Source: Desulfobacterales bacterium
Lineage (GTDB): Bacteria > Desulfobacterota > Desulfobacteria > Desulfobacterales > UBA11574
Direction: 5' to 3'
NCBI GenBank assembly: GCA_050117895.1
Contig: JASFLX010000001.1
Coordinates: forward strand, 1-43,513
Length of the DNA stretch: 43,513 nt
The translations under genes and the position numbers were made by a program. Shown here one piece after another: positions 6,154 through 41,726 of the stretch (positions are counted from its first letter, which is position 1; the number at the start of each line of letters is the position of its first letter). Under the pieces are notes generated by a model, which was not told where the DNA came from, made no database searches, and saw nothing but the letters and a program-made list of their open reading frames with translations.

Positions 6154-6362
6154 GTTAAAATCTGTTCTTTCTTTACGAACCTTTTTTATGGTTTTGTATG
6201 ATGGTGTTGTTGATTATTCATGGAGCTATTGAATCGAAAAGACTCCCCGACATATCCACGGGTATGCCTGCGGTTTTCGCAAACCCTTATGCATCAAGAT
6301 CTCAGCACATCTCTTCCCAAAAAATCGCTCGACTTAGTTTAAAATAAGATGAATTCGACCGG

Positions 6363-7250
6363 TTATGAGTTTCTCAATTTTAAGGAACGATGAAAATTTT
6401 CTTCCAAAACGCTAACCTCCTTCATCCTTTGAGGATCAAGAAATATTTTATATAATGTTTCGGTCTTATCAATGGGTCTATCCAGCAGTTTCTGCTCGAG
6501 TATTGATATTGCTTCAATGGATTTATCGCATACCGGATATCCTTTGTCATCTAGTCTGATCTCAGGTCCAAATGAAACCCTGGAGATATTATTGATATCT
6601 ACCAGTTTAATATCTCCCTGGTATGTGATGATAAGATTCTCCAGACCGGCAAAGTCAGGAACAATGGATGTTTCCAGGATCATTTTTTTTACGCATTTAA
6701 TAAAATTTTCGACTCGTTTCTGAAACTTGGCAATAAGACGCTCCGGAGTCATTTTTAGGGAATTGGGTCTGTTTACCCTTATGTCGGCAAAAATATTCCC
6801 CAGTTGATTGATGCCAATCGTTTCCCATGGATTCAGAATTTCACCCGCCACATACTCCTGAAGGCCGCAAAGAATGAAATCGCGATTTCCATTCCAGATA
6901 TAATCCACAATAAATTCGTCAGACTTTGCATAAGAATCGGATGGAAGATATTTTTCGATAATTTTTAACTTCCGTATCTCTTCAAAAACATCTGTTAAAG
7001 AGTCGAATCTGGTTCTAAAGATCCTGAGCATTTTTAAAGGCATGGCCCAGGGGAAAAATAGTATTCCGTTTGTTATTTCACCTGTGTTTTGCTTAATAAC
7101 ATCATCCGGGTCGAGCACTTCCATGATTTGGGATCGCAACCCCTGCTTATGGTATTTCCGAAATACGTAGGCTCCCGGTTTTCTGATAAAATTCAATTCG
7201 ATGATATCTTCATGGCTGATATGGGCTTTATCTCTTATATCTTTTATCAT
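6363..7250 (-). CDS. hypothetical protein, possible atypical protein-kinase-like fold
   Basis: 295-aa ORF. Hinge-like CGLQEYVAGE, catalytic-loop-like IVPDFAGLENLII and DFG-like GDIKLVDIN spaced as in kinase-like folds; no family recognised. Confidence 0.55.
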   Translation of the reverse strand: MIKDIRDKAHISHEDIIELNFIRKPGAYVFRKYHKQGLRSQIMEVLDPDDVIKQNTGEITNGILFFPWAMPLKMLRIFRTRFDSLTDVFEEIRKLKIIEKYLPSDSYAKSDEFIVDYIWNGNRDFILCGLQEYVAGEILNPWETIGINQLGNIFADIRVNRPNSLKMTPERLIAKFQKRVENFIKCVKKMILETSIVPDFAGLENLIITYQGDIKLVDINNISRVSFGPEIRLDDKGYPVCDKSIEAISILEQKLLDRPIDKTETLYKIFLDPQRMKEVSVLEENFHRSLKLRNS

Positions 7251-7925: not shown

Positions 7926-8588
7926 TTACCCTTTCCATCCATATTCACCCACAAGTTTGACGAACCGGCATCCGCCTAAATTTGTCTTGTGAATGCCTTG
8001 TTCATCCTTGTAAAGCTTTATCAGTTCCTGGGAGTAACGGTCTCCTACGGGTATCACCATACGCCCCCCCATAGCAAGCTGGCTCACAAGGGGCTTGGGA
8101 ATTCCCGGTGAACCTGCGGTAACAATAATACCATCAAAAGGGCTTTCATCCGCCCATCCGGAAGTGCCGTCGGAATATTTGGTTACAATATTGTGATAAT
8201 GAAGCTTGTCAAATAGCTTGCGGCTACTTAAATATAGTGAGTGTATTTTCTCGATAGTATAAACGCGAAATACTATTTCTGCTAAAACTGCTGCCTGATA
8301 TCCTGATCCTGTTCCGATTTCAAGTATCCTGTCTTCTTCGTCCGGCTGCAATGCCTGGGTCATCTCGGCTACAATATACGGCTGTGAGATGGTCTGCTGT
8401 TCTCCGATGGGAAGCGGAAAATCACCATAGGCCTGATCTCTTAAGGCTTCACTCACAAAAAGATGCCTCGGGACTTTGCTCATGGCCGCAAGGACCCTGG
8501 AATCCGTTACCCCGCGTCCTTGAATCTGCCTTCTAACCATTTCTTCTCGCTGGCGTTCATATTTTATGGAATTTTCATTCAATGTCAA
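7926..8588 (-). CDS. pcm: protein-L-isoaspartate O-methyltransferase
   Basis: VPRHLFV, ISQPYIVA and ILEIGTGSGYQAAVLA SAM-binding motifs. Start is TTG at 8588; a later ATG is possible. Confidence 0.9.
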   Translation of the reverse strand: MTLNENSIKYERQREEMVRRQIQGRGVTDSRVLAAMSKVPRHLFVSEALRDQAYGDFPLPIGEQQTISQPYIVAEMTQALQPDEEDRILEIGTGSGYQAAVLAEIVFRVYTIEKIHSLYLSSRKLFDKLHYHNIVTKYSDGTSGWADESPFDGIIVTAGSPGIPKPLVSQLAMGGRMVIPVGDRYSQELIKLYKDEQGIHKTNLGGCRFVKLVGEYGWKG

Positions 8589-8906
8589 AGGTCTCGAAAT
8601 TGATACAAAGATTTGAAAGGGTTATATTGTTGGTTTAAATTACGATGCATGATAAATAAATTTTCTATCAAATTAAAAGGGTTAGGTCAAGAATTTAGAA
8701 TCTGATAGCAGAAAAGAGTGTTTTTCCGGACCCAAGACACATGCCATGTATTCAACGATTTGGTTTGGATTCAGAATTTAGCAATAAAAAACCCTTGATT
8801 TATCAACAAAATGTAACATAATTAAGTAAAACCCGTGAAAGAAATAAATCATAAAAAAACAAATTGAAATAACGATTAATAGACACGCGTTGCACCAATC
8901 TAACTT

Positions 8907-9123
8907 TTGTCCATCCATAAATGAGGTTTTTTGTTCAAGATCAAGACATGTGAAAAAAATAACCACCCCGGTACGATCTGCCGGCCCTGTCCCGGCATTT
9001 TCACGGGGACCTACGGGGCAGGCAGGCATATGTTTAATATTCCGAGGATTATTTTTTGAGCATAACGCAGAGACTTGTCCGCCTCCGGCGGATTGGGCAA
9101 AAAGACCATTTATGGGTGGACAC
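8907..9123. repeat. palindromic MITE-like element, copy F (long variant)
   Basis: Terminal inverted repeat GTCCATCCATAAATG (8909-8923) / CATTTATGGGTGGAC (9107-9121), 1 mismatch. Central core GCAGGCATATGTTTAATATTCCGAGGA. Carries the 21-nt hairpin module ACTTGTCCGCCTCCGGCGGAT (9073-9093). Confidence 0.7.
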
Positions 9124-9161
9124 TAACTCGGTGTCAGGATCGGAAAAAGCTATGTGGGCAA

Positions 9162-10178
9162 ATGAATAGTACAAAACATCTGATCTTTGCTAATTTATTA
9201 GTGATACTCATCATTAGTCTGGGGGTAGCCGGATATATGATGATCGAAGGGTGGAACCTTTTAGATGCGTTATATATGACCGTCACCACGCTGACCACGG
9301 TGGGATATGGCGAAGTACATGAGATGACAAAAATGGGGCAGGTGTTTACTATTATGCTCATCTGTGTCGGCGTTGCCTTCTTTTTGTATGTTGCCGGCGC
9401 TGTTGTCCAGTTCATGGTTGAAGGGCGAATCAGAACCATATTAGGGAGAAGAAGATTGGATAAAAAGATTGATCGACTGAAAAACCATTATATTATTTGT
9501 GGATATGGGCGTATCGGCAAGGTTCTTTGCAAAATGTTATTAAGAAAGCCCTTTGACCTGATCGTTGTTGAGAAGGATCCGGAGCTTATCCCGGTAATGG
9601 ACGCAGATAAAATTCTCTATGTGTCAGGTGATGCGACAAATGAAGAAAATTTGCTTAAAGCAGGATTGAATCGTGCGAAAGGGCTGATTGCCGCGCTGGC
9701 TACGGATACGGAAAATGTTTTCCTGGTGCTGACAGCCAGACAACTGAACCCCGACCTTTATATTATTGCAAGGGGAAGCAGTAACGAATCTAAGAATAAA
9801 TTGCATGCCGCAGGCGCCAACAAGGTAGAATTACCATACGATATGGGTGCCGTGAGTATGGCCCAGCGGATCATCCGTCCAACCGTGACCAATTTTCTGG
9901 AACTTGCCTTTGCTCACCGACGTAAAGATATTCAGATGGAAGAAATGCCGGTCCACTCTTCCTCTAATCTTGTCAATATCATGCTGAAAGATTCAGGAAT
10001 CAGGCAACAATTCAACTTGATAATCATTGCGATAAAAAAGCTTGATGGGAATATGCTGTTTAATCCTTCTTTTGAGACGGTTATCGAGGGCGGTGATACC
10101 GTAATTGCTGTGGGGCAGGAAAATAATCTTCAACAACTGGAAAAGATATTGAATCCAACAGGACAAGGGCTTGCCTAG
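9162..10178 (+). CDS. voltage-independent K+ channel with TrkA-N/TrkA-C (RCK) domains
   Basis: Selectivity filter TTVGYGE; Rossmann HYIICGYGRIGK; C-terminal RCK-C. Start set to ATG 9162 because the ORF-track extension from 9075 is a translation of repeat copy F. Confidence 0.85.
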   Translation: MNSTKHLIFANLLVILIISLGVAGYMMIEGWNLLDALYMTVTTLTTVGYGEVHEMTKMGQVFTIMLICVGVAFFLYVAGAVVQFMVEGRIRTILGRRRLDKKIDRLKNHYIICGYGRIGKVLCKMLLRKPFDLIVVEKDPELIPVMDADKILYVSGDATNEENLLKAGLNRAKGLIAALATDTENVFLVLTARQLNPDLYIIARGSSNESKNKLHAAGANKVELPYDMGAVSMAQRIIRPTVTNFLELAFAHRRKDIQMEEMPVHSSSNLVNIMLKDSGIRQQFNLIIIAIKKLDGNMLFNPSFETVIEGGDTVIAVGQENNLQQLEKILNPTGQGLA

Positions 10179-10348
10179 TGTCCATCCAGAAATGGTAGAT
10201 TTTGGTTTCCGGCAAGGCCCGAGCAAGTTTTCAACCTCCCCGAAAACATCACGGGATCTCCGACAGGCATAGCGCGCTATTTCGAGGATTGAAAACGAGC
10301 GAGAACGCCGCCGGGGGCCGAAAGATGCCGTTTATGGATGGACACTAG
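10175..10348. repeat. palindromic MITE-like element, copy A
   Basis: CTAGTGTCCATCCAGAAATGG (10175-10195) / CCGTTTATGGATGGACACTAG (10328-10348). Core CAGGCATAGCGCGCTATTTCGAGGATTGAAAAC. Near-identical to copy B except for a 28-nt internal insertion. Fills the whole convergent gap. Confidence 0.85.
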
Positions 10349-25783: not shown

Positions 25784-25857
25784 TCAACCTAATAATTTCT
25801 TCATCTGTTTTCTTCCTTAATGACTAATCGGAAACGTTCCGATTAGTCATTTTTTTT
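25784..25857 (+). ncRNA. candidate sigma-54-dependent small RNA (about 74 nt)
   Basis: Bounded by the -24/-12 promoter and an intrinsic terminator. No ORF. 5' half is the CU-rich stretch TTCTTCATCTGTTTTCTTCCTTAA. The 5' end is inferred from promoter geometry only. Confidence 0.5.
25820..25857 (+). terminator. rho-independent terminator
   Basis: Perfect 14-bp stem ATGACTAATCGGAA / TTCCGATTAGTCAT (25820-25833 / 25837-25850) followed by T7 (25851-25857). Confidence 0.75.
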
Positions 25858-25867
25858 GAAATGCGCA

Positions 25868-26015
25868 CAGAAGTGGTTTCAAAGCCTTCAATCAGGTTCA
25901 AAGTCAAGGCGGACCGAGGGGTTCAAACATAGGAATATATTTAATATTTCAAGTATTGAATCCTTCGGTCCAACACAGAAATTGGGCCTGAGGGGAGGTT
26001 TTGAAACCACTTCTA
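25868..26015. repeat. palindromic MITE-like element, copy D
   Basis: CAGAAGTGGTTTCAAA (25868-25883) / TTTGAAACCACTTCTA (26000-26015). Internal TCAAAGTCAAGGCGGACCGAGG and CAACACAGAAATTGGG shared with copy E. Confidence 0.75.
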
Positions 26016-26705
26016 CCCTGTTACTCTTTCTTTTATAATCTCAACATACATGGAGCCGGAATGATCAGATAGGATTTTCTTAAAGGCACTTATACTCTTA
26101 TCATGATCGCCCATGGCAGCATAAAGCTCTCCCAAGTTGAAAAGAGCCTCGTCCTTGATGGTATAATCCGGCGCTGAAGCAATGGCTTCAAAATAACTGA
26201 CTGCGGTTTTAAAATCTTTTTTTGCTTTATAAGAGTAGCCCAGCCCGTTTAAGCTTAAGTTTTTTATAAACATTTCGTCATTAAAATTTATTAGCGATTT
26301 TTTGTAAAGCTCTATTGCCTTGTCGTAATTTTTGGCGGTGTAACACATATTCGCATAAATAAAACTGGCCAGTTTACTCCCGTCTCTTTTTGAATATTTA
26401 TCCATAATAAGCTGCAAATCATTTTCCACATCAAAGAAGGCTTTTTCCGGAGTGCTGGTTTTCAATTTTGTCTGGTAGTTGATGATTACCTGCTGAAGCA
26501 AAGCAAAGGCTTTATCTTCGGATTTTTTTATAAAATACACCATTCCGATAATAATGATACTTATGATAACCATAACGCCCAAAGCGCTTGAAAAAATCAG
26601 CTTATATTCAGAGATAAATTCAAATAATTTTGCCCAAAAGCTTATAAACTCATCGGGTTCACTCAGGTCTCTTTTCCGGGATCGGGACACCCTTTTTTTC
26701 GCCAT
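26013..26705 (-). CDS. membrane-anchored TPR protein (YfgM-like)
   Basis: Basic N-terminus, single TM (ALGVMVIISIIIIGMVYF), then TPR repeats. The stop codon TAG lies in the terminus of repeat copy D. Confidence 0.7.
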   Translation of the reverse strand: MAKKRVSRSRKRDLSEPDEFISFWAKLFEFISEYKLIFSSALGVMVIISIIIIGMVYFIKKSEDKAFALLQQVIINYQTKLKTSTPEKAFFDVENDLQLIMDKYSKRDGSKLASFIYANMCYTAKNYDKAIELYKKSLINFNDEMFIKNLSLNGLGYSYKAKKDFKTAVSYFEAIASAPDYTIKDEALFNLGELYAAMGDHDKSISAFKKILSDHSGSMYVEIIKERVTG

Positions 26706-29473: not shown

Positions 29474-29535
29474 GGTTTCAGGTGTCAGGTGTCAGTGCCT
29501 CTGTCCGTCATTCCTGACACCTGACACCTGAAACC
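29474..29535. repeat. perfect 22-bp inverted repeat (18-nt loop) abutting the feoB stop codon
   Basis: GGTTTCAGGTGTCAGGTGTCAG (29474-29495) / CTGACACCTGACACCTGAAACC (29514-29535). Each arm contains CAGGTGT twice. No U-tract on the feoB strand. Confidence 0.8.
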
Positions 29536-31758: not shown

Positions 31759-31986
31759 CTATTTTACATTATCAACAGTAATTTGTGCAGCTTCTTCAAC
31801 CCGAAGTGATACATGATACCCCTTTACAATTAACTCTATAGGATCTTTCAGGGGTGCATATTTTTCAACATAGACCTCGGAACCCTTCAGGAGCCCCATT
31901 TCGAGAATCCTTCTACGCAGAGCCCCGTTACCTCCGATATGAACGATTCTTGCGGTCTGGTTTTCTTTTATATCGCTTAATAACAT
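31759..31986 (-). CDS. feoA: FeoA
   Basis: 75-aa SH3-like FeoA (RRRILEMGLLKGSEV...IELIVKGYHVSLR). Start at ATG 31986 with GGGGAGA RBS. Confidence 0.8.
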   Translation of the reverse strand: MLLSDIKENQTARIVHIGGNGALRRRILEMGLLKGSEVYVEKYAPLKDPIELIVKGYHVSLRVEEAAQITVDNVK

Positions 31987-32002
31987 GAATAAATCTCCCC
32001 GG

Positions 32003-32683
32003 TTAACTTCTAATAAGCTCCACCAGTATCTTCTTTGCCAGCCCACGCCCAAGAGCGTACCGGTTATAATCTATGGCAACCACCAATTGTCCTTTGTCCA
32101 GATTGGTAACTACCTCTATCTTGTCTCCAATTCTCAAACCCATGGATAATAGACGCATACGTGCCGTCGCACCTCCGATAAAATCTTTAATTTCAAACCG
32201 TTCACCTTGTTTGGCATTGACAAGCGTCATGAGTTGTTCGCGATCTTTAAGGCATTTGGAACAGATACCGTAGATTTCCATTTTGTGACGGAGCATGTGG
32301 AAATTATAGTCCGCAGCAATCTGAATCTGCAAGTTTTCAAGCGCTTCGTTCTCAAACTCAAAAATATTTTTACATTTTGTACAGATCATATGATCATGAT
32401 GTTTACCCAAATGTCTGTGTTCATAGCGCACTTGTCCATTATTGAAGCTCATTTTTTGTGCAAAACCAAAACGGCACATAAGCTTCAACGTGTCCCGGAC
32501 AAAATCAGGAGTTAATTCATATCCATTTTCATTAAGAAGCTGAACAAGTTCGGCAACGGTAACGTGTTCCTCGGTCTGAAGAAAAACTTCCAGGATATTG
32601 AATCTATCTTCGAAATAATCAATATCTTCTTGTTTAAAAAGCTTTTCGAATTGTTCTTTTTCTTTTTTATGAACTCGTTTCAT
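32003..32683 (-). CDS. Fur-family regulator fused to a C-terminal FeoA domain
   Basis: Residues about 20-150: winged-helix plus HHDH, CTKC and CSKC Fur metal sites. Residues about 160-226: FeoA-like (ATARMRLLSMGLRIGDKIEVV...VVAIDYNRYALGRGLAKKI). Confidence 0.8.
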   Translation of the reverse strand: MKRVHKKEKEQFEKLFKQEDIDYFEDRFNILEVFLQTEEHVTVAELVQLLNENGYELTPDFVRDTLKLMCRFGFAQKMSFNNGQVRYEHRHLGKHHDHMICTKCKNIFEFENEALENLQIQIAADYNFHMLRHKMEIYGICSKCLKDREQLMTLVNAKQGERFEIKDFIGGATARMRLLSMGLRIGDKIEVVTNLDKGQLVVAIDYNRYALGRGLAKKILVELIRS

Positions 32684-33008: not shown

Positions 33009-33214
33009 GCTCCATGAATAATCCGCAACACCACCGTACAAACTCATGCAAAGGGCTCGTAACGAAAAAACATTGGTTCAATATTTAAATAAATAGACCA
33101 AACAGGTAACATTTTTTATCTTTTCATTTCGAATTCATAAAAGCGCTGTTTTTTCGCAACGATCCCTAATGCATTCAAACAGTGCACGATGGTGTTGCGG
33201 ATCATTCATTCCGC
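33009..33214. repeat. 206-bp inverted-repeat element (second module family)
   Basis: GCTCCATGAATAATCCGCAACACCACCGT (33009-33037) against ACGATGGTGTTGCGGATCATTCATTCCGC (33186-33214), about 24 of 29 complementary. A related solo arm lies at 6198-6226. Confidence 0.65.
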
Positions 33215-33298: not shown

Positions 33299-33442
33299 AG
33301 TTTCCATCCAGAAATGGTAGATTTTGGCTTCCGGCAAGGCCCGAACGAGTTTTTAACCGCAGGCATAGCGCGCTATGTCGAGGATTGAAAACGAGCGAGA
33401 ACGCCGCCGGAGGCCGAAAGATGCCGTTTCTGGATGGAAACT
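33299..33442. repeat. palindromic MITE-like element, copy B (compact prototype)
   Basis: AGTTTCCATCCAGAAATGG (33299-33317) / CCGTTTCTGGATGGAAACT (33424-33442), 1 mismatch. Core CCGCAGGCATAGCGCGCTATGTCGAGGATTGAAAAC. Confidence 0.85.
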
Positions 33443-36233
33443 AATGTCTGGTCAAACTTCCATATATCCGTAACAGTTTGTCGGGCAGTTCGCGGACGTC
33501 AGATATCACATTGTGATGAACATTTCCATAAAGATCATCCAGCTTGGGATCTCCTGCAAAATTAACGGTTATGGCATGAGTATATATGTTTTTCGAACGC
33601 GCCTCGAATATGGCTTTTCGTGTATCTTCAATTGCATAATTTTGCTTGTAATCAACATCGTTGGGGAATCCGTCACCTAAAATAATCAATAAACGGACTT
33701 TTGAAGAAATCTCTTTAAGTTCACGGGTCGCATGGCGGATGGCGGCCCCCATTCGGGTGCTCCGTTGAGGCGTCATGGCATTAATACGCCGCTTGACAGT
33801 ATCATCCATATTTTCATCGAGATCTTTTATGCGAAAGTAATCCACTCCCAAGCGTCCGGTTCCGGAAAAACCTGCGATAGCAAAGGCATCTCCCACAACT
33901 TCCAGCGCTTCGCAAAAAAGTACGATAGCCTCCTTCTCCACATCCAGAACGGTCGCATTTGAACCCAAAACAGCGTTTGCTGTTGAACGTGACAGATCGA
34001 CAAGCAGGAGCACGGCAACATCCCGGGTCTGTTTAATGTGTTTGATATACAGCCTGTCCGATGGAATTTTTCCCGCCTTTTTATCTATGGCAAAGTCTAA
34101 CAGTGCCCGGTAATCGAACTCATCTCCCTCCGTCCATTGTCTTAATCTTATAAGTCCCTCGGGCTTCAACAGTTCAAAAGCATAGCGTATCCTTTTTACC
34201 AGGCCCCTGTAATGTTTTAATGTTAACTTATAAAAATCGCTTTCTTTTTCGGTTATAGATTTGTCGAGCACCCTCACATGAGAATGGAGATAATCCTGCA
34301 AGTTACAGTCCCATTCTTTGTGCCAGGTAACAATACCGGAAAAATCTTCTTTCTGAAGCACGATCGTGTCGTCAGTGCCGAGGAGTTCGGACAAATCCAT
34401 CCAGGATAAGTCTATGGAAACTTTTTGTTGGGATAACATATGAGGCCCGTGGTTTTTCCGAAAACATAATATAATTTCTTTCAGGTCCTGATGGGAAACC
34501 CTACCGTTGTTTTCCATCAGGCGTTTTTTAATATCCGATGTATAGACTTCAAACCCCTTTTCCACGAGTTGAACCTTTAAGATCCTGGCCAAACGCTCAT
34601 ATTTCCGATTCGCACGGAAAAAAAGATCAGGTCTTAATGTACGGCCAAAGGGTGTTTGCATGGGCTTATAAAATCCCTTAAGTTCTTTTTTATCATATGA
34701 CGTCTGGTTCAAAAGTCTTTCCATTTCCGGATAAATTCTGACAACAAGTTCCGCGCAGGACTCAACCGTAGAGTTTTCATTTATTCCTGTTTCGAAAGAA
34801 TCCTTTAACTGCTTGGTATAATTATATATTTTGGCATCCAAGCCAAAATGCTCTTTTTCTGAAATACCCAGGGCAATCCACAGATACAAAAGAAAGACCA
34901 TGTCAACCGGCTTATGGTTTTTAATCATCCGTTCGGCTTCTCGTTGAAGCACGGGAAGGGTCTGCCTGACCAGGCCCGGATACTGACGGTGCAACATCAA
35001 TCGGATGCGGCCGTGTTCGAAGATGGTGAACAAATCCGCTGCCAGCGCCGTGACCGGAAAATACGAGAAAAAACGCTCCAGATCAGATAGATCTTCCCCG
35101 TTTTGGATGACATCGAATTTTAAATCATAATCTTTTAATTCCGGGATGTCCCGGCATTTTTCCATGGCTTTTTCAAGATCAAAATCGAAGGTGCCAAACT
35201 CATAATGTCCGGCTTCAAGTCTTGCAAGGCATTTATATAGGGCTATGTTTTCGGCTTTTTGGGGAAAATGACTGATTTCATCAGGAAGGTATATGAACTT
35301 CCCGTCTGAACAGACAAAAATAATTTTATGGGGATCTGTTAGTAATGAATCCGGGAGTAAAGAAAGCGGCCGCACTGAAACTGCAAGGCCGGTTCTGGCC
35401 ATAAGATAACGGTTCAACTGCTGCCGAACCCGGGAAATATGAATCGTGACCTGCATATCGGTAAAGGTATCGATCCCGAATTTGGATTCCAGTGAAAGAA
35501 ATTTTTTTGTTAGTTTGGGGTTACGTTTTAATTTTTCGAGCCCCACTGAAACAAAACGACTTAAAGCCTCTTTGGAAAGCAGATCCAGTCCTTTTTCAAG
35601 GCCGTCCAGAAAAAAATCGGCCAGGTGACAATCAGCCTTTATCACGCGTCCAAGCTGTTCTGTCTGCCAGGCTCGCTTTGAAGAAGAAAAGGCACGCACG
35701 GCCCCGGGCAGGATATGAGCAAAATGCTGGCTCTGGACATAGGACATATCCTGGGAAAAGATATCGCCAAGCAAATCAAGGGTTGCAGATGCGGCTTCAA
35801 TCTGGTTTCCGTTTAATAATTCCGACAAAACCCTAAGCGGATCTTTCAGGGTATATGTACCTTTGTTCAGCATAATCTCGAGGGTTTGCAAAAAGCGCTT
35901 TAAAAAATGTTTGTCCCCGTATTTTATTACCGGCACAAGATGCTCGGCCATAATCCGCCCCAGCGTCGGACCGTTGCGCCCAAAGTTTCGGACCAGATCC
36001 CGGTAGCGAAAAATTTTTTTAAGATCAACATCCCCAATCAGATCCGCATAACCGATTGCCAGAGTTCGACCGAAAGAAATCTCTCGGGCTAATCCCCACA
36101 ACGTCTCTTCAACCAGCAATGTAAGGCTTTGGTTTGAAACCGGACTGTCTTTCTGATTCAAGGCAGTCGTAACCGCCTTTGCCAGGTCCGGATCGGCAAT
36201 AGCGAGCTGTTTGAGTGGATCTTCTTTGTGCAT
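33441..36233 (-). CDS. large VWA-domain protein (CbbO/NorD-like partner of a MoxR-class ATPase)
   Basis: 930 aa. C-terminal VWA with MIDAS LLLVDLSRSTAN and ILGDGFPND; long helical N-terminal region. Confidence 0.75.
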   Translation of the reverse strand: MHKEDPLKQLAIADPDLAKAVTTALNQKDSPVSNQSLTLLVEETLWGLAREISFGRTLAIGYADLIGDVDLKKIFRYRDLVRNFGRNGPTLGRIMAEHLVPVIKYGDKHFLKRFLQTLEIMLNKGTYTLKDPLRVLSELLNGNQIEAASATLDLLGDIFSQDMSYVQSQHFAHILPGAVRAFSSSKRAWQTEQLGRVIKADCHLADFFLDGLEKGLDLLSKEALSRFVSVGLEKLKRNPKLTKKFLSLESKFGIDTFTDMQVTIHISRVRQQLNRYLMARTGLAVSVRPLSLLPDSLLTDPHKIIFVCSDGKFIYLPDEISHFPQKAENIALYKCLARLEAGHYEFGTFDFDLEKAMEKCRDIPELKDYDLKFDVIQNGEDLSDLERFFSYFPVTALAADLFTIFEHGRIRLMLHRQYPGLVRQTLPVLQREAERMIKNHKPVDMVFLLYLWIALGISEKEHFGLDAKIYNYTKQLKDSFETGINENSTVESCAELVVRIYPEMERLLNQTSYDKKELKGFYKPMQTPFGRTLRPDLFFRANRKYERLARILKVQLVEKGFEVYTSDIKKRLMENNGRVSHQDLKEIILCFRKNHGPHMLSQQKVSIDLSWMDLSELLGTDDTIVLQKEDFSGIVTWHKEWDCNLQDYLHSHVRVLDKSITEKESDFYKLTLKHYRGLVKRIRYAFELLKPEGLIRLRQWTEGDEFDYRALLDFAIDKKAGKIPSDRLYIKHIKQTRDVAVLLLVDLSRSTANAVLGSNATVLDVEKEAIVLFCEALEVVGDAFAIAGFSGTGRLGVDYFRIKDLDENMDDTVKRRINAMTPQRSTRMGAAIRHATRELKEISSKVRLLIILGDGFPNDVDYKQNYAIEDTRKAIFEARSKNIYTHAITVNFAGDPKLDDLYGNVHHNVISDVRELPDKLLRIYGSLTRH

Positions 36234-36317: not shown

Positions 36318-36430
36318 GAACGATAAACGTCGAACATATTATATTAAAAGATGAACGTCCAACTCGCCACAGGCGAGCAAGCACTTGTCCGCCTCCGGCG
36401 GATCAAACATTGAACGTCGAACGTCGAATA
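36318..36430. repeat. intergenic hairpin cluster flanked by GAACG(T/A)-rich direct repeats
   Basis: GAACGATAAACGTCGAACA (36318-36336) and GAACGTCGAACGTCGAATA (36412-36430) flank the hairpins CTCGCCACAGGCGAG (36363-36377) and TCCGCCTCCGGCGGA (36388-36402). Confidence 0.55.
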
Positions 36431-38011: not shown

Positions 38012-38126
38012 TAAGTTCTGCAAGTTTTAGGTTGTATTGACATGGTCAATGTAATAGTTATGTTAGCAGCATCGAAAAATTATTAACCGGCCAAGATACC
38101 GGCCAGCATACATATACCGAATTCAA

Positions 38127-39290: not shown

Positions 39291-39307
39291 TTTTAGAAAG
39301 ATCGAGT

Positions 39308-39530
39308 TAGGGAGACCTTTGAAAAATGTCAATTTTTGTTTAAGTTCAAGGCAATTCTGCAGGATAGCAGAATTGGACAGCTGCCAAGCTGCCCGCAAGG
39401 GCGAGGGGCATGGACGCCCCGAGTCAACGCGATAATTTTAACCGCAGGAATACATTGAGTATTTTGAGGATTAAAATTTGAGCCTGACGCAGAAATTGAG
39501 CAAAAAGAGGCGTTTTTCAAAGGTCTCCTA
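39308..39530. repeat. palindromic MITE-like element, copy C (long variant)
   Basis: TAGGGAGACCTTTGAAAAATG (39308-39328) / CGTTTTTCAAAGGTCTCCTA (39511-39530). Core CCGCAGGAATACATTGAGTATTTTGAGGATTAAAATT. Confidence 0.75.
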
Positions 39531-40349
39531 GGCTTCCGGTGACGGCAGAATTCTCACCACAGTTCTCTCCATTTTCTTGCCATTCTTCAATGGATAGGAC
39601 ATCCGGACCGTTTTAAGCCGCCCCTGGGCAAACAGTTTTACACATTCCGGATAAAGCGCCCACTCCAGCTTCAAGCCTTTTGCTCTGATGGAATCCAGAG
39701 TATCCTCCTCGAGTATCTCATAAGCCTTCTGACCGATAATGGGCCCTGAATCTTCACCGTAATCGACAAAATGTACCGTACACCCGCCGATCTTGCATCC
39801 ATATCGGAAGGTGTCCCCATATCCATCTACACCGGGAAACGCCGGTAGCAGGGCCGGATGGATATTCATTATACGCGGTATATCTGAATCCGTATTTACC
39901 CTGTCGATAAAATAAGGCGATAAATTTCTCATATAACCGGCCAATACCAAAAGATCGAACGGATAATGCTTCATCGCATCAATAAGTTTTGCTTCTGCAA
40001 CAGCCCTTGTGATGATAAAGGTTTTCGCCGTTTCAGTGTCGGCATGGGCTGTAAAAAGCGTCTGTTTTGAGAGCAGGTCGTTAAGGTCGAAATCGTCCGG
40101 GGGTACGACATTTTCCGGTGTATTTTTGAAATGTTGAATGATGGATCCATAATCGACGACAAACGTTGGGATCCCAAGCCGGGTCCCTTTTTCCAGACCC
40201 GGTGCATTGGGATTATCCGATCCCACGAATACGATTTTCCCGTTTATTTTTCCCGATTCACAGGAATCGATAATGGCCTGCAGGTTTGTCCCGGTTCCGG
40301 ATATCAGCGCTCCGATTCGGATGGTTCGGTCCATTTTAGAGGTCTCCAT
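39528..40349 (-). CDS. purN: phosphoribosylglycinamide formyltransferase (with a roughly 45-aa internal insertion)
   Basis: IGALISGTGTNLQAI, LLVLAGYMR and NIHPALLPAFPG motifs; 273 aa against about 210 for canonical PurN. Confidence 0.85.
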   Translation of the reverse strand: METSKMDRTIRIGALISGTGTNLQAIIDSCESGKINGKIVFVGSDNPNAPGLEKGTRLGIPTFVVDYGSIIQHFKNTPENVVPPDDFDLNDLLSKQTLFTAHADTETAKTFIITRAVAEAKLIDAMKHYPFDLLVLAGYMRNLSPYFIDRVNTDSDIPRIMNIHPALLPAFPGVDGYGDTFRYGCKIGGCTVHFVDYGEDSGPIIGQKAYEILEEDTLDSIRAKGLKLEWALYPECVKLFAQGRLKTVRMSYPLKNGKKMERTVVRILPSPEA

Positions 40350-40478: not shown

Positions 40479-41726
40479 GTGAGATCTGTGAAAAGCTTAT
40501 TTTTGAAATTTTTTATCCTGACGGGTATGCTGCTGGGGTTGCCCATGCTGGGTGTGGTTCTGGCAGGGTATCCAATGACCCGGTATCTGGAGTTTCCCCC
40601 TGAAACCCGGTATGTTTTTCATGCACCCTTTTCATGGATTGCCTTCATTGCTTACACCCTTTTTATCCTTGCAGTGGTTCTTCCCTTTATCGTAAATTCC
40701 ATGGTTCGAATCCCACAATTTAAAATCAGACCTTCGGTCACTAGAAGCCATCTCAAAAATAGGATTTTGGCTCAAGGTCAAGGCAGGACCGAGTTTCAAC
40801 CCGCAGGCATACTCAAGTATGTCGAGGACTTGAAAGGAGGGCCTAACACAGAGATTGAGGAAAAAGACTTTTTTGAGATAGCTTCTAATACGTTCCCCTG
40901 GTGGGGATGGATGGGTTCACTCACCGGCGCGGTTTCATGGATATTGGCATGGACCCGTTTTTCCTGGTTTGCCCCATATCAGCCTCACACATTCATTCCG
41001 TTGTGGCTTTCTTTCATCCTGGTGATAAATGCCCTGTGCCATAAACGAACCGGGCACTGCATGATGATAGACCGCACCCGTTTTTTTCTTTTGCTTTTTC
41101 CTTTAAGCGCCGCATTTTGGTGGTTCTTTGAATACCTGAACCGGTTTGTCCAGAACTGGAGCTACACCGGGGTTCATTATAGCTCCTGGGAGTATTTCTG
41201 CTATGCAACACTCTCTTTTTCAACCGTACTTCCCGCGGTTTTGGGAACTCGGGAATGGATGGCCGGTGCTTTCCGTACCCGGCAGGGAGTGTGGGATTTT
41301 CACCCCTTGAGGTTCCCGTATCCCAGAATGTTGGCAGGGGCTGCCCTACTGATATCCGGTGCCAGCCTGGCCGGCATCGGCGTCTGGCCGAATTATCTTT
41401 TTCCTCTCCTATGGGTATCTCCTCTCATTGTTATTGTGTCACTCCAAACCCTGACCGGTGAACGCACGATCCTGTCGGGTATAACCAAAGGAGATTGGAG
41501 CCTGATCATCACGTCCGCAGCCGCCGCTCTTTTATGCGGAGGATTCTGGGAGATGTGGAACTATTACAGTTTGGCCAGATGGGAATACAGCGTCCCGTTT
41601 GTTCATGGGTTTCAAATCTTTGAAATGCCGCTCTTAGGTTATGCCGGGTATCTCCCCTTTGGCTTGGAATGTATGGTTTTCGGAGATTTGCTGGAACGGT
41701 GGATGAGGTTTCGCAGCACAATATAG
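40479..41726 (+). CDS. polytopic membrane protein of unknown function carrying an in-frame repeat insertion
   Basis: 415-aa ORF with about 9-10 hydrophobic helices. Residues about 88-136 are the translation of repeat copy E. Confidence 0.6.
   Translation: MRSVKSLFLKFFILTGMLLGLPMLGVVLAGYPMTRYLEFPPETRYVFHAPFSWIAFIAYTLFILAVVLPFIVNSMVRIPQFKIRPSVTRSHLKNRILAQGQGRTEFQPAGILKYVEDLKGGPNTEIEEKDFFEIASNTFPWWGWMGSLTGAVSWILAWTRFSWFAPYQPHTFIPLWLSFILVINALCHKRTGHCMMIDRTRFFLLLFPLSAAFWWFFEYLNRFVQNWSYTGVHYSSWEYFCYATLSFSTVLPAVLGTREWMAGAFRTRQGVWDFHPLRFPYPRMLAGAALLISGASLAGIGVWPNYLFPLLWVSPLIVIVSLQTLTGERTILSGITKGDWSLIITSAAAALLCGGFWEMWNYYSLARWEYSVPFVHGFQIFEMPLLGYAGYLPFGLECMVFGDLLERWMRFRSTI
40742..40887. mobile_element. 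palindromic MITE-like element, copy E, inside a CDS
   Basis: TAGAAGCCATCTCAAAAA (40742-40759) / TTTTTGAGATAGCTTCTA (40870-40887), 17 of 18 complementary. Core CCGCAGGCATACTCAAGTATGTCGAGGACTTGAAAG. Confidence 0.8.

Follow-up and report, generated by a model that had tools for sequence, protein, structure and literature searches.

Mobile hairpin elements with a common folded core and subfamily-specific ends in a Desulfobacterales genome and its relatives

Copies of the element in the window and their neighbourhood

The stretch of Desulfobacterales DNA analysed (GenBank assembly GCA_050117895.1, contig JASFLX010000001.1, 43,513 nt; hereafter, the window) contains, according to Pfam scans of 38 open reading frames (ORFs), only housekeeping genes (among them pilMNOPQ, feoAB, fur, serS, a sigma-54 two-component pair, a K+ channel and a formyltransferase), and seven copies of a palindromic element, which corresponds to 7 copies per 43.5 kb, or approximately one per 6 kb. 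An initial annotation had described six plus-strand copies (A–F) and the core of a degenerate minus-strand copy as a MITE-like family (MITE, miniature inverted-repeat transposable element). Scanning the whole window with the core motif CAGG[C/A]ATA-N5-9-TAT..GAGGA gave seven matches, six on the plus strand and one on the minus strand; the strict form of this pattern occurred three times versus 0.01 expected. A covariance model (R1; 146 positions, 40 pairs) built from 24 copies and run with filters off detected the same seven places and nothing else significant, with scores of 135, 115, 110 and 54 bits for copies E, B, D and A, 42 and 19 bits for the inner parts of copies C and F, and 19 bits for the minus-strand copy at 6242–6275. 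Thus, all previously noticed copies, including the minus-strand core, were recovered within a few bases of their first placement. No transposase, as had been stated initially, and no reverse transcriptase, HUH enzyme or integrase was found in the Pfam scans of the 38 ORFs.

The copies ranged from 142 to 217 nt, with a basic form of approximately 142–146 nt. Their boundaries were defined by the covariance model and terminal motifs; boundaries taken from the outermost pair of the minimum-free-energy fold, or from extension alignments with cheap gaps, ran too far into the flanks, and only the qualitative result of those attempts was retained. Each copy folded into one long hairpin, as had been proposed, with arms of 33–60 nt (complementarity of 70–84%) and a stability exceeding that of shuffled controls (z from −5.5 to −14.7).

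Copy F (8907–9123, plus strand), found by both the core pattern and R1, is a long A-type variant with TTGTCC..GGACAC ends and extra nested hairpins (fold of −86 kcal/mol, z = −5.5). It lies between the divergent PCMT gene (start at 8588, minus strand) and the K+ channel gene and is enclosed by the 6-bp direct repeats TAACTT (8901–8906) and TAACTC (9124–9129). The K+ channel gene (ORF 9075–10178; Pfam TrkA and Ion_trans_2) is followed by copy A (10178–10345, plus strand; −86.3 kcal/mol, z = −8.8), which was found by R1, has A-type GTGTCC..GGACAC ends and is flanked by TA at 10176–10177 and 10346–10347. Outside an extra 28-nt hairpin at 10236–10263, this copy is 92–95% identical to copy B (33300–33441, plus strand, R1), the shortest form, with A-type GTTTCC..GGAAAC ends, so the near identity reported for the two was confirmed; copy B is antisense relative to both adjacent genes. 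Copy D (25870–26013, plus strand, R1) is of D-type (GAAGTGG..CCACTTC) and has CA at 25868–25869 and TA at 26014–26015. Copy C (39312–39527, plus strand; −101 kcal/mol, z = −10.5), matched by R1 in its inner part, has C-type GAGACC..GGTCTC ends, a 74-nt inserted cluster of four mini-hairpins in its 5′ arm and the flanking 5-bp repeats TTAGG (39307–39311) and CTAGG (39528–39532). Copies C and F, described before as longer variants, both have additional nested mini-hairpins. Copy E (40744–40885, plus strand, R1) has E-type GAAGCC..AGCTTC ends and TA at 40742–40743 and 40886–40887. Finally, the minus-strand copy (6227–6338; ACTAAGTCGAGCG.., found by the core pattern and R1) is a truncated M-type copy situated directly downstream of the 3′ end of ORF 6363–7250 (minus strand); its 5′ arm and apex (6244–6273) are kept, whereas its 3′ arm has been exchanged for an arm of another repeat at 6163–6226. 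Its full-length relatives include those in L006, L025 and L030.

Five of the seven window copies adjoin gene 3′ ends, while copy F occupies a divergent promoter gap and copy E is intragenic; the initial statement of an almost exclusive location at gene 3′ ends was thus corrected. It should be noted that the element starts with G and ends with C, and insertion into the TA of a stop codon (TAA or TAG) consequently rebuilds TAG for the gene on either side. The left TA of copy A and the first G of the element form the TAG stop codon of the K+ channel gene. On the minus strand, the last C and the following TA form the TAG stop codon of the TPR gene (ORF 26013–26705) at copy D and, at 33442–33443, that of the VWA gene (ORF 33441–36233) at copy B, and the CTA at 39528–39530, at the right end of copy C, is the stop codon of the formyltransferase gene. 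Copy E lies inside ORF 40479–41726, which encodes a membrane protein of 415 aa, and brings a net gain of 144 nt that is read as 48 in-frame codons, none of them a stop (..IRPSVT[48 aa]TFPWWGW.. versus ..IRPSATYTFPWWGW.. in the L119 orthologue); the gene carrying it is open in the window and in contigs L118, L200, L201 and L203. This 48-codon read-through is the only open frame in the elements. At least 122 protein clusters have the E-type frame open, and every one of them is a gene call of 44–86 aa with the label hypothetical. Neighbouring genes could be called for 39 copies, whose orientation relative to these genes was random (9 in the same direction and sense, 11 antisense, 12 convergent and 7 divergent).

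Further hairpins were observed in the window. A terminator-like hairpin (ATGACTAATCGGAAACGTTCCGATTAGTCAT) with a T run is located at 25820–25866, just upstream of copy D and approximately 300 nt past the sigma-54 response-regulator gene. A second, unrelated hairpin of approximately 196 nt occupies 33014–33209 (arms ATGAATAATCCGCAACACCACCGTACA and TGCACGATGGTGTTGCGGATCATTCAT, 89% complementary); in the strain-level contig L202, 188 nt of this hairpin are gone and one arm is left. The sequence at 6163–6226 (minus strand) in place of the 3′ half of the truncated M-type copy is a single 64-nt arm with 81% similarity to the arm of the 33014–33209 hairpin. The arm opens with a short ORF-like ATGAATAAT..CAACACCA.. 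string.

Termini, target duplications and polymorphic sites

The copies were grouped by terminal sequence, and the flanking bases forming a direct repeat were counted. In the E subfamily (GAAGCC..GGCTTC), a 2-bp repeat was found in 16 of 18 copies (14 TA and 2 AT); the duplication of both the E and D subfamilies is 2 bp, nearly always TA. Eight of the 12 copies of the M subfamily (ACCTAAG..CTTAGGT) had a 3-bp repeat (TAT, TAA, CTA, TTT or TTA), whereas a 5-bp repeat was present in half of the 10 C-type copies (GAGACC..GGTCTC) and a 6-bp repeat of about TAANTA in 6 of the 12 A-type copies (GTGTCC..GGACAC), with one mismatch at most in the latter two groups. The termini accompanying the TA, 6-bp, 5-bp and 3-bp footprints were GAAGCCATCTCAAAA, GTGTCCATCCAGAAA, GAGACCTTTGAAAAA and ACCTAAGTTGAGCG, respectively. 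The chance expectation of such a direct repeat was roughly 1% or less per subfamily class. The termini were conserved inside each subfamily across genomes, while the inner 100 nt were plainly homologous across subfamilies. A single IS630-type mechanism for all subfamilies is contradicted by these repeat lengths, as the 2-bp TA footprint does not apply to the A (6 bp), C (5 bp) and M (3 bp) subfamilies.

When metagenomes were scanned with the formyltransferase encoded between copies C and E, 80 orthologous loci with protein identity from 99% down to 63% were obtained, and both the E and C sites were polymorphic among these relatives. At the E site, the window and contig L118 (99% identical) carry the element, while at least 18 related contigs have an empty site; the interval between its flanks was 195 nt when filled versus 51 nt when empty (net gain of 144 nt), and the sequences GTAT-TA-[GAAGC..GCTTC]-TA-GTGGCC (filled) and GTA-TA-AGTGGCC (empty) confirmed the TA/TA footprint. 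The C site was filled in the window and in contigs L118, L121, L127, L128 and L131 and empty in L119 and L120. Comparison of GGAAG-CCTAG-[element]-CCTAA-CTCGATC, read with C-type ends, with the empty GGAAG-ACTAA-TTTGACG is compatible with duplication of 5 bp (NCTAR) if one or two substitutions are allowed for. In contigs L122 and L130, only the first 12 nt of a C-type element (TAGGAGACCTTT) were left right after the formyltransferase stop codon, joined to the downstream flank at a CTTT microhomology, which looks like a deletion footprint rather than precise excision. Filled and empty pairs were also obtained for an A-type copy (L156 versus L164, TAGTTA duplicated) and a D-type copy (L172 versus L180, TC duplicated).

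Strain-level contigs L200–L205 were chosen by their identical CbbQ-like protein. Copies B, C and E were kept in strain-level contigs, copy B in all six. A 269-nt relative was found in L202 (6558–6842), L204 and L205 exactly at the fur-feoA stop codon and was missing from the window (approximately 32003–32052) and L200; it has ACCTAAA.. ends, the CAAGGC/AACGC loop and a different apex, and the duplicated bases are AGA or TAGAA. Filled and empty sites thus back every duplication class, the pair for the 3-bp class being this relative with ACCTAAA ends in L202 and not a canonical M-type copy. Many public contigs end inside an element. These data show that the elements are mobile, non-autonomous and multi-copy, with target duplications, and the designation as MITE-like given initially is supported by the filled and empty orthologous sites, the target duplications and the lack of a transposase in the window. 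The following generic features of MITEs are present: a size below approximately 400 bp without a transposase ORF, terminal inverted repeats, target duplication relative to empty sites, and presence/absence variation of multiple copies. A cognate autonomous insertion sequence with the same ends was not found in approximately 1.5 Mb of loci.

A sister family with TGACGG..CCGTCA ends and an apex of AGGCGUAC-loop-GUACGC was also recognised; it has the CAAGGCG/AACGCAG loop in common with the elements described here and scores 51–57 bits with R1. Its site is filled in L119 (12167–12295), L120, L123, L124, L126, L133 and L144 and empty in the window (approximately 38057–38098) and L118. Filled and empty pairs are likewise seen for copies of this family.

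Fold of the element, its conservation and distribution

From the outside inwards, the fold consists of a terminal helix of approximately 17–20 bp, whose sequence varies by subfamily and is self-complementary in every case, and a second helix with many U-G pairs. Next comes, in most subfamilies, an internal loop whose 5′ side has a conserved CAAGGC and whose 3′ side has a conserved AACGC. Two short helices then lead to the apex. The apex as a whole reads CC-GCA-GGCAUA-loop-UAUGUC-GA-GG-A and comprises an asymmetric internal loop (GCA after CC on the 5′ side, GA before GG-A on the 3′ side) beneath an apical stem, GGCAUA/UAUGUC, that is conserved in sequence, with a variable closing pair and a loop of 4–6 nt. 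Of the layout shared by all copies according to the initial annotation, the core was reproduced by the pattern scan and R1, whereas the terminal repeats differ in sequence between copies and keep only their complementarity.

The arms covary instead of keeping their sequence. In the seed alignment of 24 sequences, 30 of the 40 predicted pairs had changed on both sides, and the second apical pair was G-U in all 24. Among 121 further copies from 100 genome loci, 90.6% of pair cells were standard pairs, compared with 59.2% after shuffling and 35–47% with the partners slid, and double changes occurred at 38 of 40 pairs; since this alignment was fitted to the model, the figures are somewhat inflated, although the seed result and the slid controls agree with them in direction. 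In the variable helices, G-U pairs numbered 345 versus 78 A-C mismatches. Folds of the plus strand had energies of −84 (copy B), −82 (copy D) and −53 kcal/mol versus −60, −58 and −48 kcal/mol for the minus strand. The best copies scored 110–135 bits with R1 on the plus strand and 16–18 bits on the minus strand (copy B, 115 versus 16; copy D, 110 versus 18). The scaffold thus folds properly on one strand only, and the G-U bias, the one-strand fold and the strand scores together exclude a constraint acting on duplex DNA alone.

Other explanations were considered and rejected. A double-stranded site of the Xer/dif or operator kind does not agree with a spacer varying from 5 to 8 nt or with a loop-closing pair that covaries (C-G, G-C and U-A), which indicate a hairpin and not a dimer site. 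The core motifs of the K-turn and of hammerhead, hairpin and twister ribozymes are missing, and there is no Rfam match; integron attC sites are likewise excluded, both the R/L box pattern and a cassette array being missing. Covariation and strand specificity are also what would be seen in a structured RNA family, that is, if the copies were fixed, non-mobile paralogous genes of small RNAs. This explanation is extremely improbable and already contradicted by the presence/absence data: orthologous sites are filled or empty at both strain and species level, the copies are surrounded by target duplications, contigs break within them, one copy is inserted in a coding sequence, and no Rfam family matches.

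The apex pattern was searched in 185,579 species-representative genomes, which revealed at least 117 further loci outside the window, so the family is not confined to it. Among the matches listed, nearly all were metagenome-assembled genomes (MAGs) of Desulfobacterales and other Thermodesulfobacteriota, the other carriers being Thermoanaerobaculia, other Acidobacteriota, Nitrospiraceae, Candidatus Magnetocorallium, Planctomycetota and a Selenomonas. Complete assemblies with the element include OY761158.1 (Thermoanaerobaculia), OY771548.1 (Desulfosarcina) and CAWGGE010000001.1. The apex is therefore conserved in at least five phyla (Desulfobacterota, Acidobacteriota, Nitrospirota, Planctomycetota and that of the Selenomonas). 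Many of the matches listed were no more than 100 nt away from the end of a contig, as would be the case for repeats, which break assemblies. Genome loci with a combined length of 677 kb contained 121 copies, and orthologous loci spanning 729 kb contained 40. Synteny comparison among the first 117 loci recovered almost nothing, and a local strand bias that would point to replication-linked insertion was rejected, copies in the same 8-kb loci sharing or opposing strands about equally. In Rfam 15, no match was found for the whole window at gathering scores or for elements in four loci from other phyla, and no meaningful match for copies B and E at E-values up to 10. Searches of 72,556 plasmids and 50,697 phage records gave no match, nor did blastn of copy B against 5,426 complete Escherichia coli genomes, and in IMG/VR the pattern was present in two contigs only. 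Literature searches yielded general reviews of MITEs, but no description of this hairpin family. The failure to recognise the family in the initial annotation is in accordance with these results.

Orthologous C-site copies were 93–98% identical in their common backbone, whereas the nucleotide identity of the adjacent formyltransferase gene was 86–92%; this slow divergence is due either to purifying selection or to copies homogenising one another. These orthologous copies contained lineage-specific insertions of 26–74 nt at differing positions, and longer forms of the element in general carry extra hairpin modules of 20–75 nt. According to blastn-short comparison, identical modules recur in copies of unrelated MAGs, so the variants are circulating forms, with gene conversion or re-insertion being likely. 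An optional 19–20-nt unit (CTTGTCCGCCTCCGGCGGA) was found in the right arm of copy F (9074–9096) and in element copies of L027, L037 and L047, with further matches in L054 and L124. It also occurs in a pair of mini-hairpins rich in GC (CTCGCCACAGGCGAG and TCCGCCTCCGGCGGA; 38 nt in all) at 36364–36401, which is present in the window, L200 and L201 and missing from the closely matching L202; both the pair and the unit may be REP-like mini-insertions.

The slow divergence of the C-site copies, together with conservation of the apex across phyla and the position of five window copies at gene 3′ ends, would fit a transcribed hairpin useful to the host, for which mobility is merely a means of spread. 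Such a module might stabilise 3′ ends, serve as a site for RNase III or RNase E, act as a terminator or insulator between convergent genes, or bind a global RNA-binding protein, and influence on mRNA stability and processing is known for ERIC and Correia elements (PMC2229807). Meanwhile, co-directional sense and antisense copies are nearly equal in number (9 versus 11), copies also lie in a promoter gap and within a gene, and sites polymorphic between close strains indicate that individual copies are dispensable; moreover, concerted evolution could account for the slow divergence. A host-serving function is thus possible but doubtful as the principal explanation.

Movement of the element and relation to known repeats

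The family is a real and well-defined MITE superfamily with one unexplained feature, namely, a core common to subfamilies with different ends and footprints. The length of the target duplication is normally fixed for each transposase family. It follows that either several enzymes move one common body or the mechanism is unconventional. We consider it likely, taking the data as a whole, that the superfamily is moved in trans by several enzymes and that its common scaffold acts in single-stranded form. Insertion is into AT-rich targets, with TA as the most frequent site, and a short stretch of the target is duplicated. The E and D subfamilies would be moved by a transposase of the IS630/Tc1-mariner type, as suggested by their TA footprint alone, and the subfamilies with 3-, 5- and 6-bp duplications probably by other enzymes. 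Insertions would be tolerated through the rebuilding of stop codons as TAG and the open reading frame of the E-type. In read-through transcripts, the scaffold would most likely function as RNA, and it may also act as a single DNA strand when the element is mobilised; it would be conserved through selection on element lineages for a harmless or useful hairpin bound or processed by a widespread host factor, rather than through recognition by one transposase.

Several observations weigh against this reading. No autonomous partner was found among paired-terminus distances and TA-flanked long inverted repeats in approximately 1.5 Mb of loci, and with no transposase in the window either, the mobilising enzymes are deduced entirely; in addition, no IS630 copy was present in the loci DNA compared. 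A search for the partner through orphan terminal motifs was abandoned as confounded, since inverted repeats match the partner arm. Four duplication lengths on one scaffold are not predicted if the elements are deletion derivatives of one insertion sequence (IS). Clean repeats are missing in about a third to half of the A-, C- and M-type copies, and a 2-bp TA duplication is indistinguishable from an element bringing one TA at palindromic CTAG sites. As for the role of the scaffold, the random orientation argues against a simple sense-strand function in 3′ untranslated regions, the strand evidence fits RNA and a single DNA strand alike, and the slow divergence of orthologous copies could reflect gene conversion and not selection.

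If the mechanism is unconventional, one enzyme may read the folded strand (the apex and internal loops) instead of the termini and move all subfamilies; the candidates would be an HUH/Y1 enzyme as in IS200/IS605 and REPIN-RAYT, a recombinase of the integron type that works on folded DNA, or a route through reverse transcription. The conservation of one core across subfamilies with differing repeat lengths, the freedom of the termini to vary provided that they pair, the strong strand specificity of the fold, the orientation of copies independent of host transcription, and the lack of a cognate IS in the approximately 1.5 Mb of loci would all agree with such structure-guided movement. However, Y1/HUH and attC-type systems produce no target duplication, whereas the copies are flanked by repeats of subfamily-specific length that match a single copy at empty sites. 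The element ends read TA-G..C-TA or ACCTAAG and bear no GTAG or CGTC tag of the REP kind; no poly-A, 5′-truncation series or reverse transcriptase gene was seen, and the window has no HUH, reverse transcriptase or integrase gene. Movement by one structure-reading enzyme is accordingly improbable. A broader proposal must be regarded as rather unlikely: that the core (the apical stem with its near-invariant G-U pair, the GCA/GA loop and the CAAGGC/AACGC loop) is a single-stranded module recognised by a widespread protein and has either been taken up or transported by several transposition systems without relation to one another, in at least five phyla, or is mobilised by a new structure-guided mechanism in which the subfamily termini, and not the enzyme family, set the duplication length.

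Movement by several enzymes, the reading preferred here, can be compared with what is established for bacterial MITEs. Elements of the IS630/Tc1/mariner group insert only at TA and duplicate it (PMC2170065), and hairpin MITEs with TA ends, target site duplications, internal-insertion variants and in-frame insertions are already established (PMC2229807, PMC3184786). Every qualitative feature of the present family thus has a precedent among bacterial MITEs: long stem-loops at the RNA level, TA ends with duplications in Correia, ERIC and RUP, size variants due to an internal insert in Correia, compensatory changes in bcr1 and in-frame insertion in RPE. What is not ordinary is one conserved structured core over several phyla in subfamilies with different termini and footprints.

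The closest likeness in footprint is to RUP (repeat unit of pneumococcus), an element of approximately 100–150 bp with terminal inverted repeats, insertion at TA, TA at both ends, no transposase coding and many copies (PMC2229807), whose presumed mobiliser is the IS630-Spn1 transposase. Its TA footprint is also that of the E and D subfamilies. However, the terminal repeats of RUP match a known IS, and no cognate IS was found here in the loci compared; RUP has no reported structured core common to families with other footprints, and the A, C and M subfamilies described here are without 2-bp TA duplications. ERIC/IRU (RU-1) of enterobacteria and Correia/NEMIS of Neisseria are imperfect palindromes of 107–155 bp that form one RNA stem-loop and have TA termini and a target duplication; internal insertions give ERIC and Correia size variants, both are co-transcribed with neighbours, and some contain ORFs extending or entering genes (PMC2229807, PMC3184786). 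Each of them is restricted to one bacterial group, unlike the present family with its single core, several termini and duplication lengths and at least five phyla, and no sequence similarity to ERIC (consensus of 127 bp) was seen in the E. coli comparison with copy B. RPE of Rickettsia are palindromic, measure 105–146 bp and lie in frame inside genes that stay open (PMC2229807), as copy E does; they are Rickettsia-specific and frequently inserted in frame, whereas one of seven window copies is intragenic, and the database proteins with the E-type frame (at least 122) are all short ORF calls of 44–86 aa. REPIN-RAYT and bcr1 of Bacillus resemble the family as long-lived hairpin repeats in which compensatory changes preserve the structure (PMC3116915, PMC3184786). 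REPINs, however, are doublets of 20–40-nt REPs with a GTAG/CGTC tag and no target duplication, in contrast to units of at least 142 nt with duplications; bcr1 has a two-hairpin, cruciform-like shape and 5-bp repeats, and the apex motif is in neither. The family is thus distinct from ERIC and from REP/REPIN and is not in Rfam.

MITEs are usually viewed as decayed insertion sequences in which only the transposase-bound ends are conserved. Here, the picture is reversed: conservation lies in the folded interior, with its strand-specific G-U pairs and compensatory changes, and the ends and footprints differ between subfamilies. A functional core would imply an unrecognised host factor that binds or processes it, or a mobilisation route that reads structure instead of sequence. 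The elements break metagenome assemblies, create spurious short hypothetical proteins (at least 122 clusters), rewrite stop codons and can lengthen a protein by 48 residues; they are also dense, as the window shows, in environmentally important sulfate reducers. Annotation would benefit from a covariance model of the family.

Two further observations concern the surroundings of the feo genes in the window. The mechanically called ORF for FeoA at 31759–32052 encodes 97 aa from a TTG start and overlaps fur-feoA by 50 nt, whereas in the identical region of L200 (13819–14046) the public calls place the start of a 75-aa FeoA 17 nt past fur-feoA, and this start of the shorter form is probably correct. 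A perfect 22-nt inverted repeat (GGTTTCAGGTGTCAGGTGTCAG and CTGACACCTGACACCTGAAACC, with a spacer of 18 nt and a tandem GGTGTCA unit within) is located at 29474–29535, where it separates the start of a radical-SAM gene from the 3′ end of feoB; both genes lie on the minus strand.

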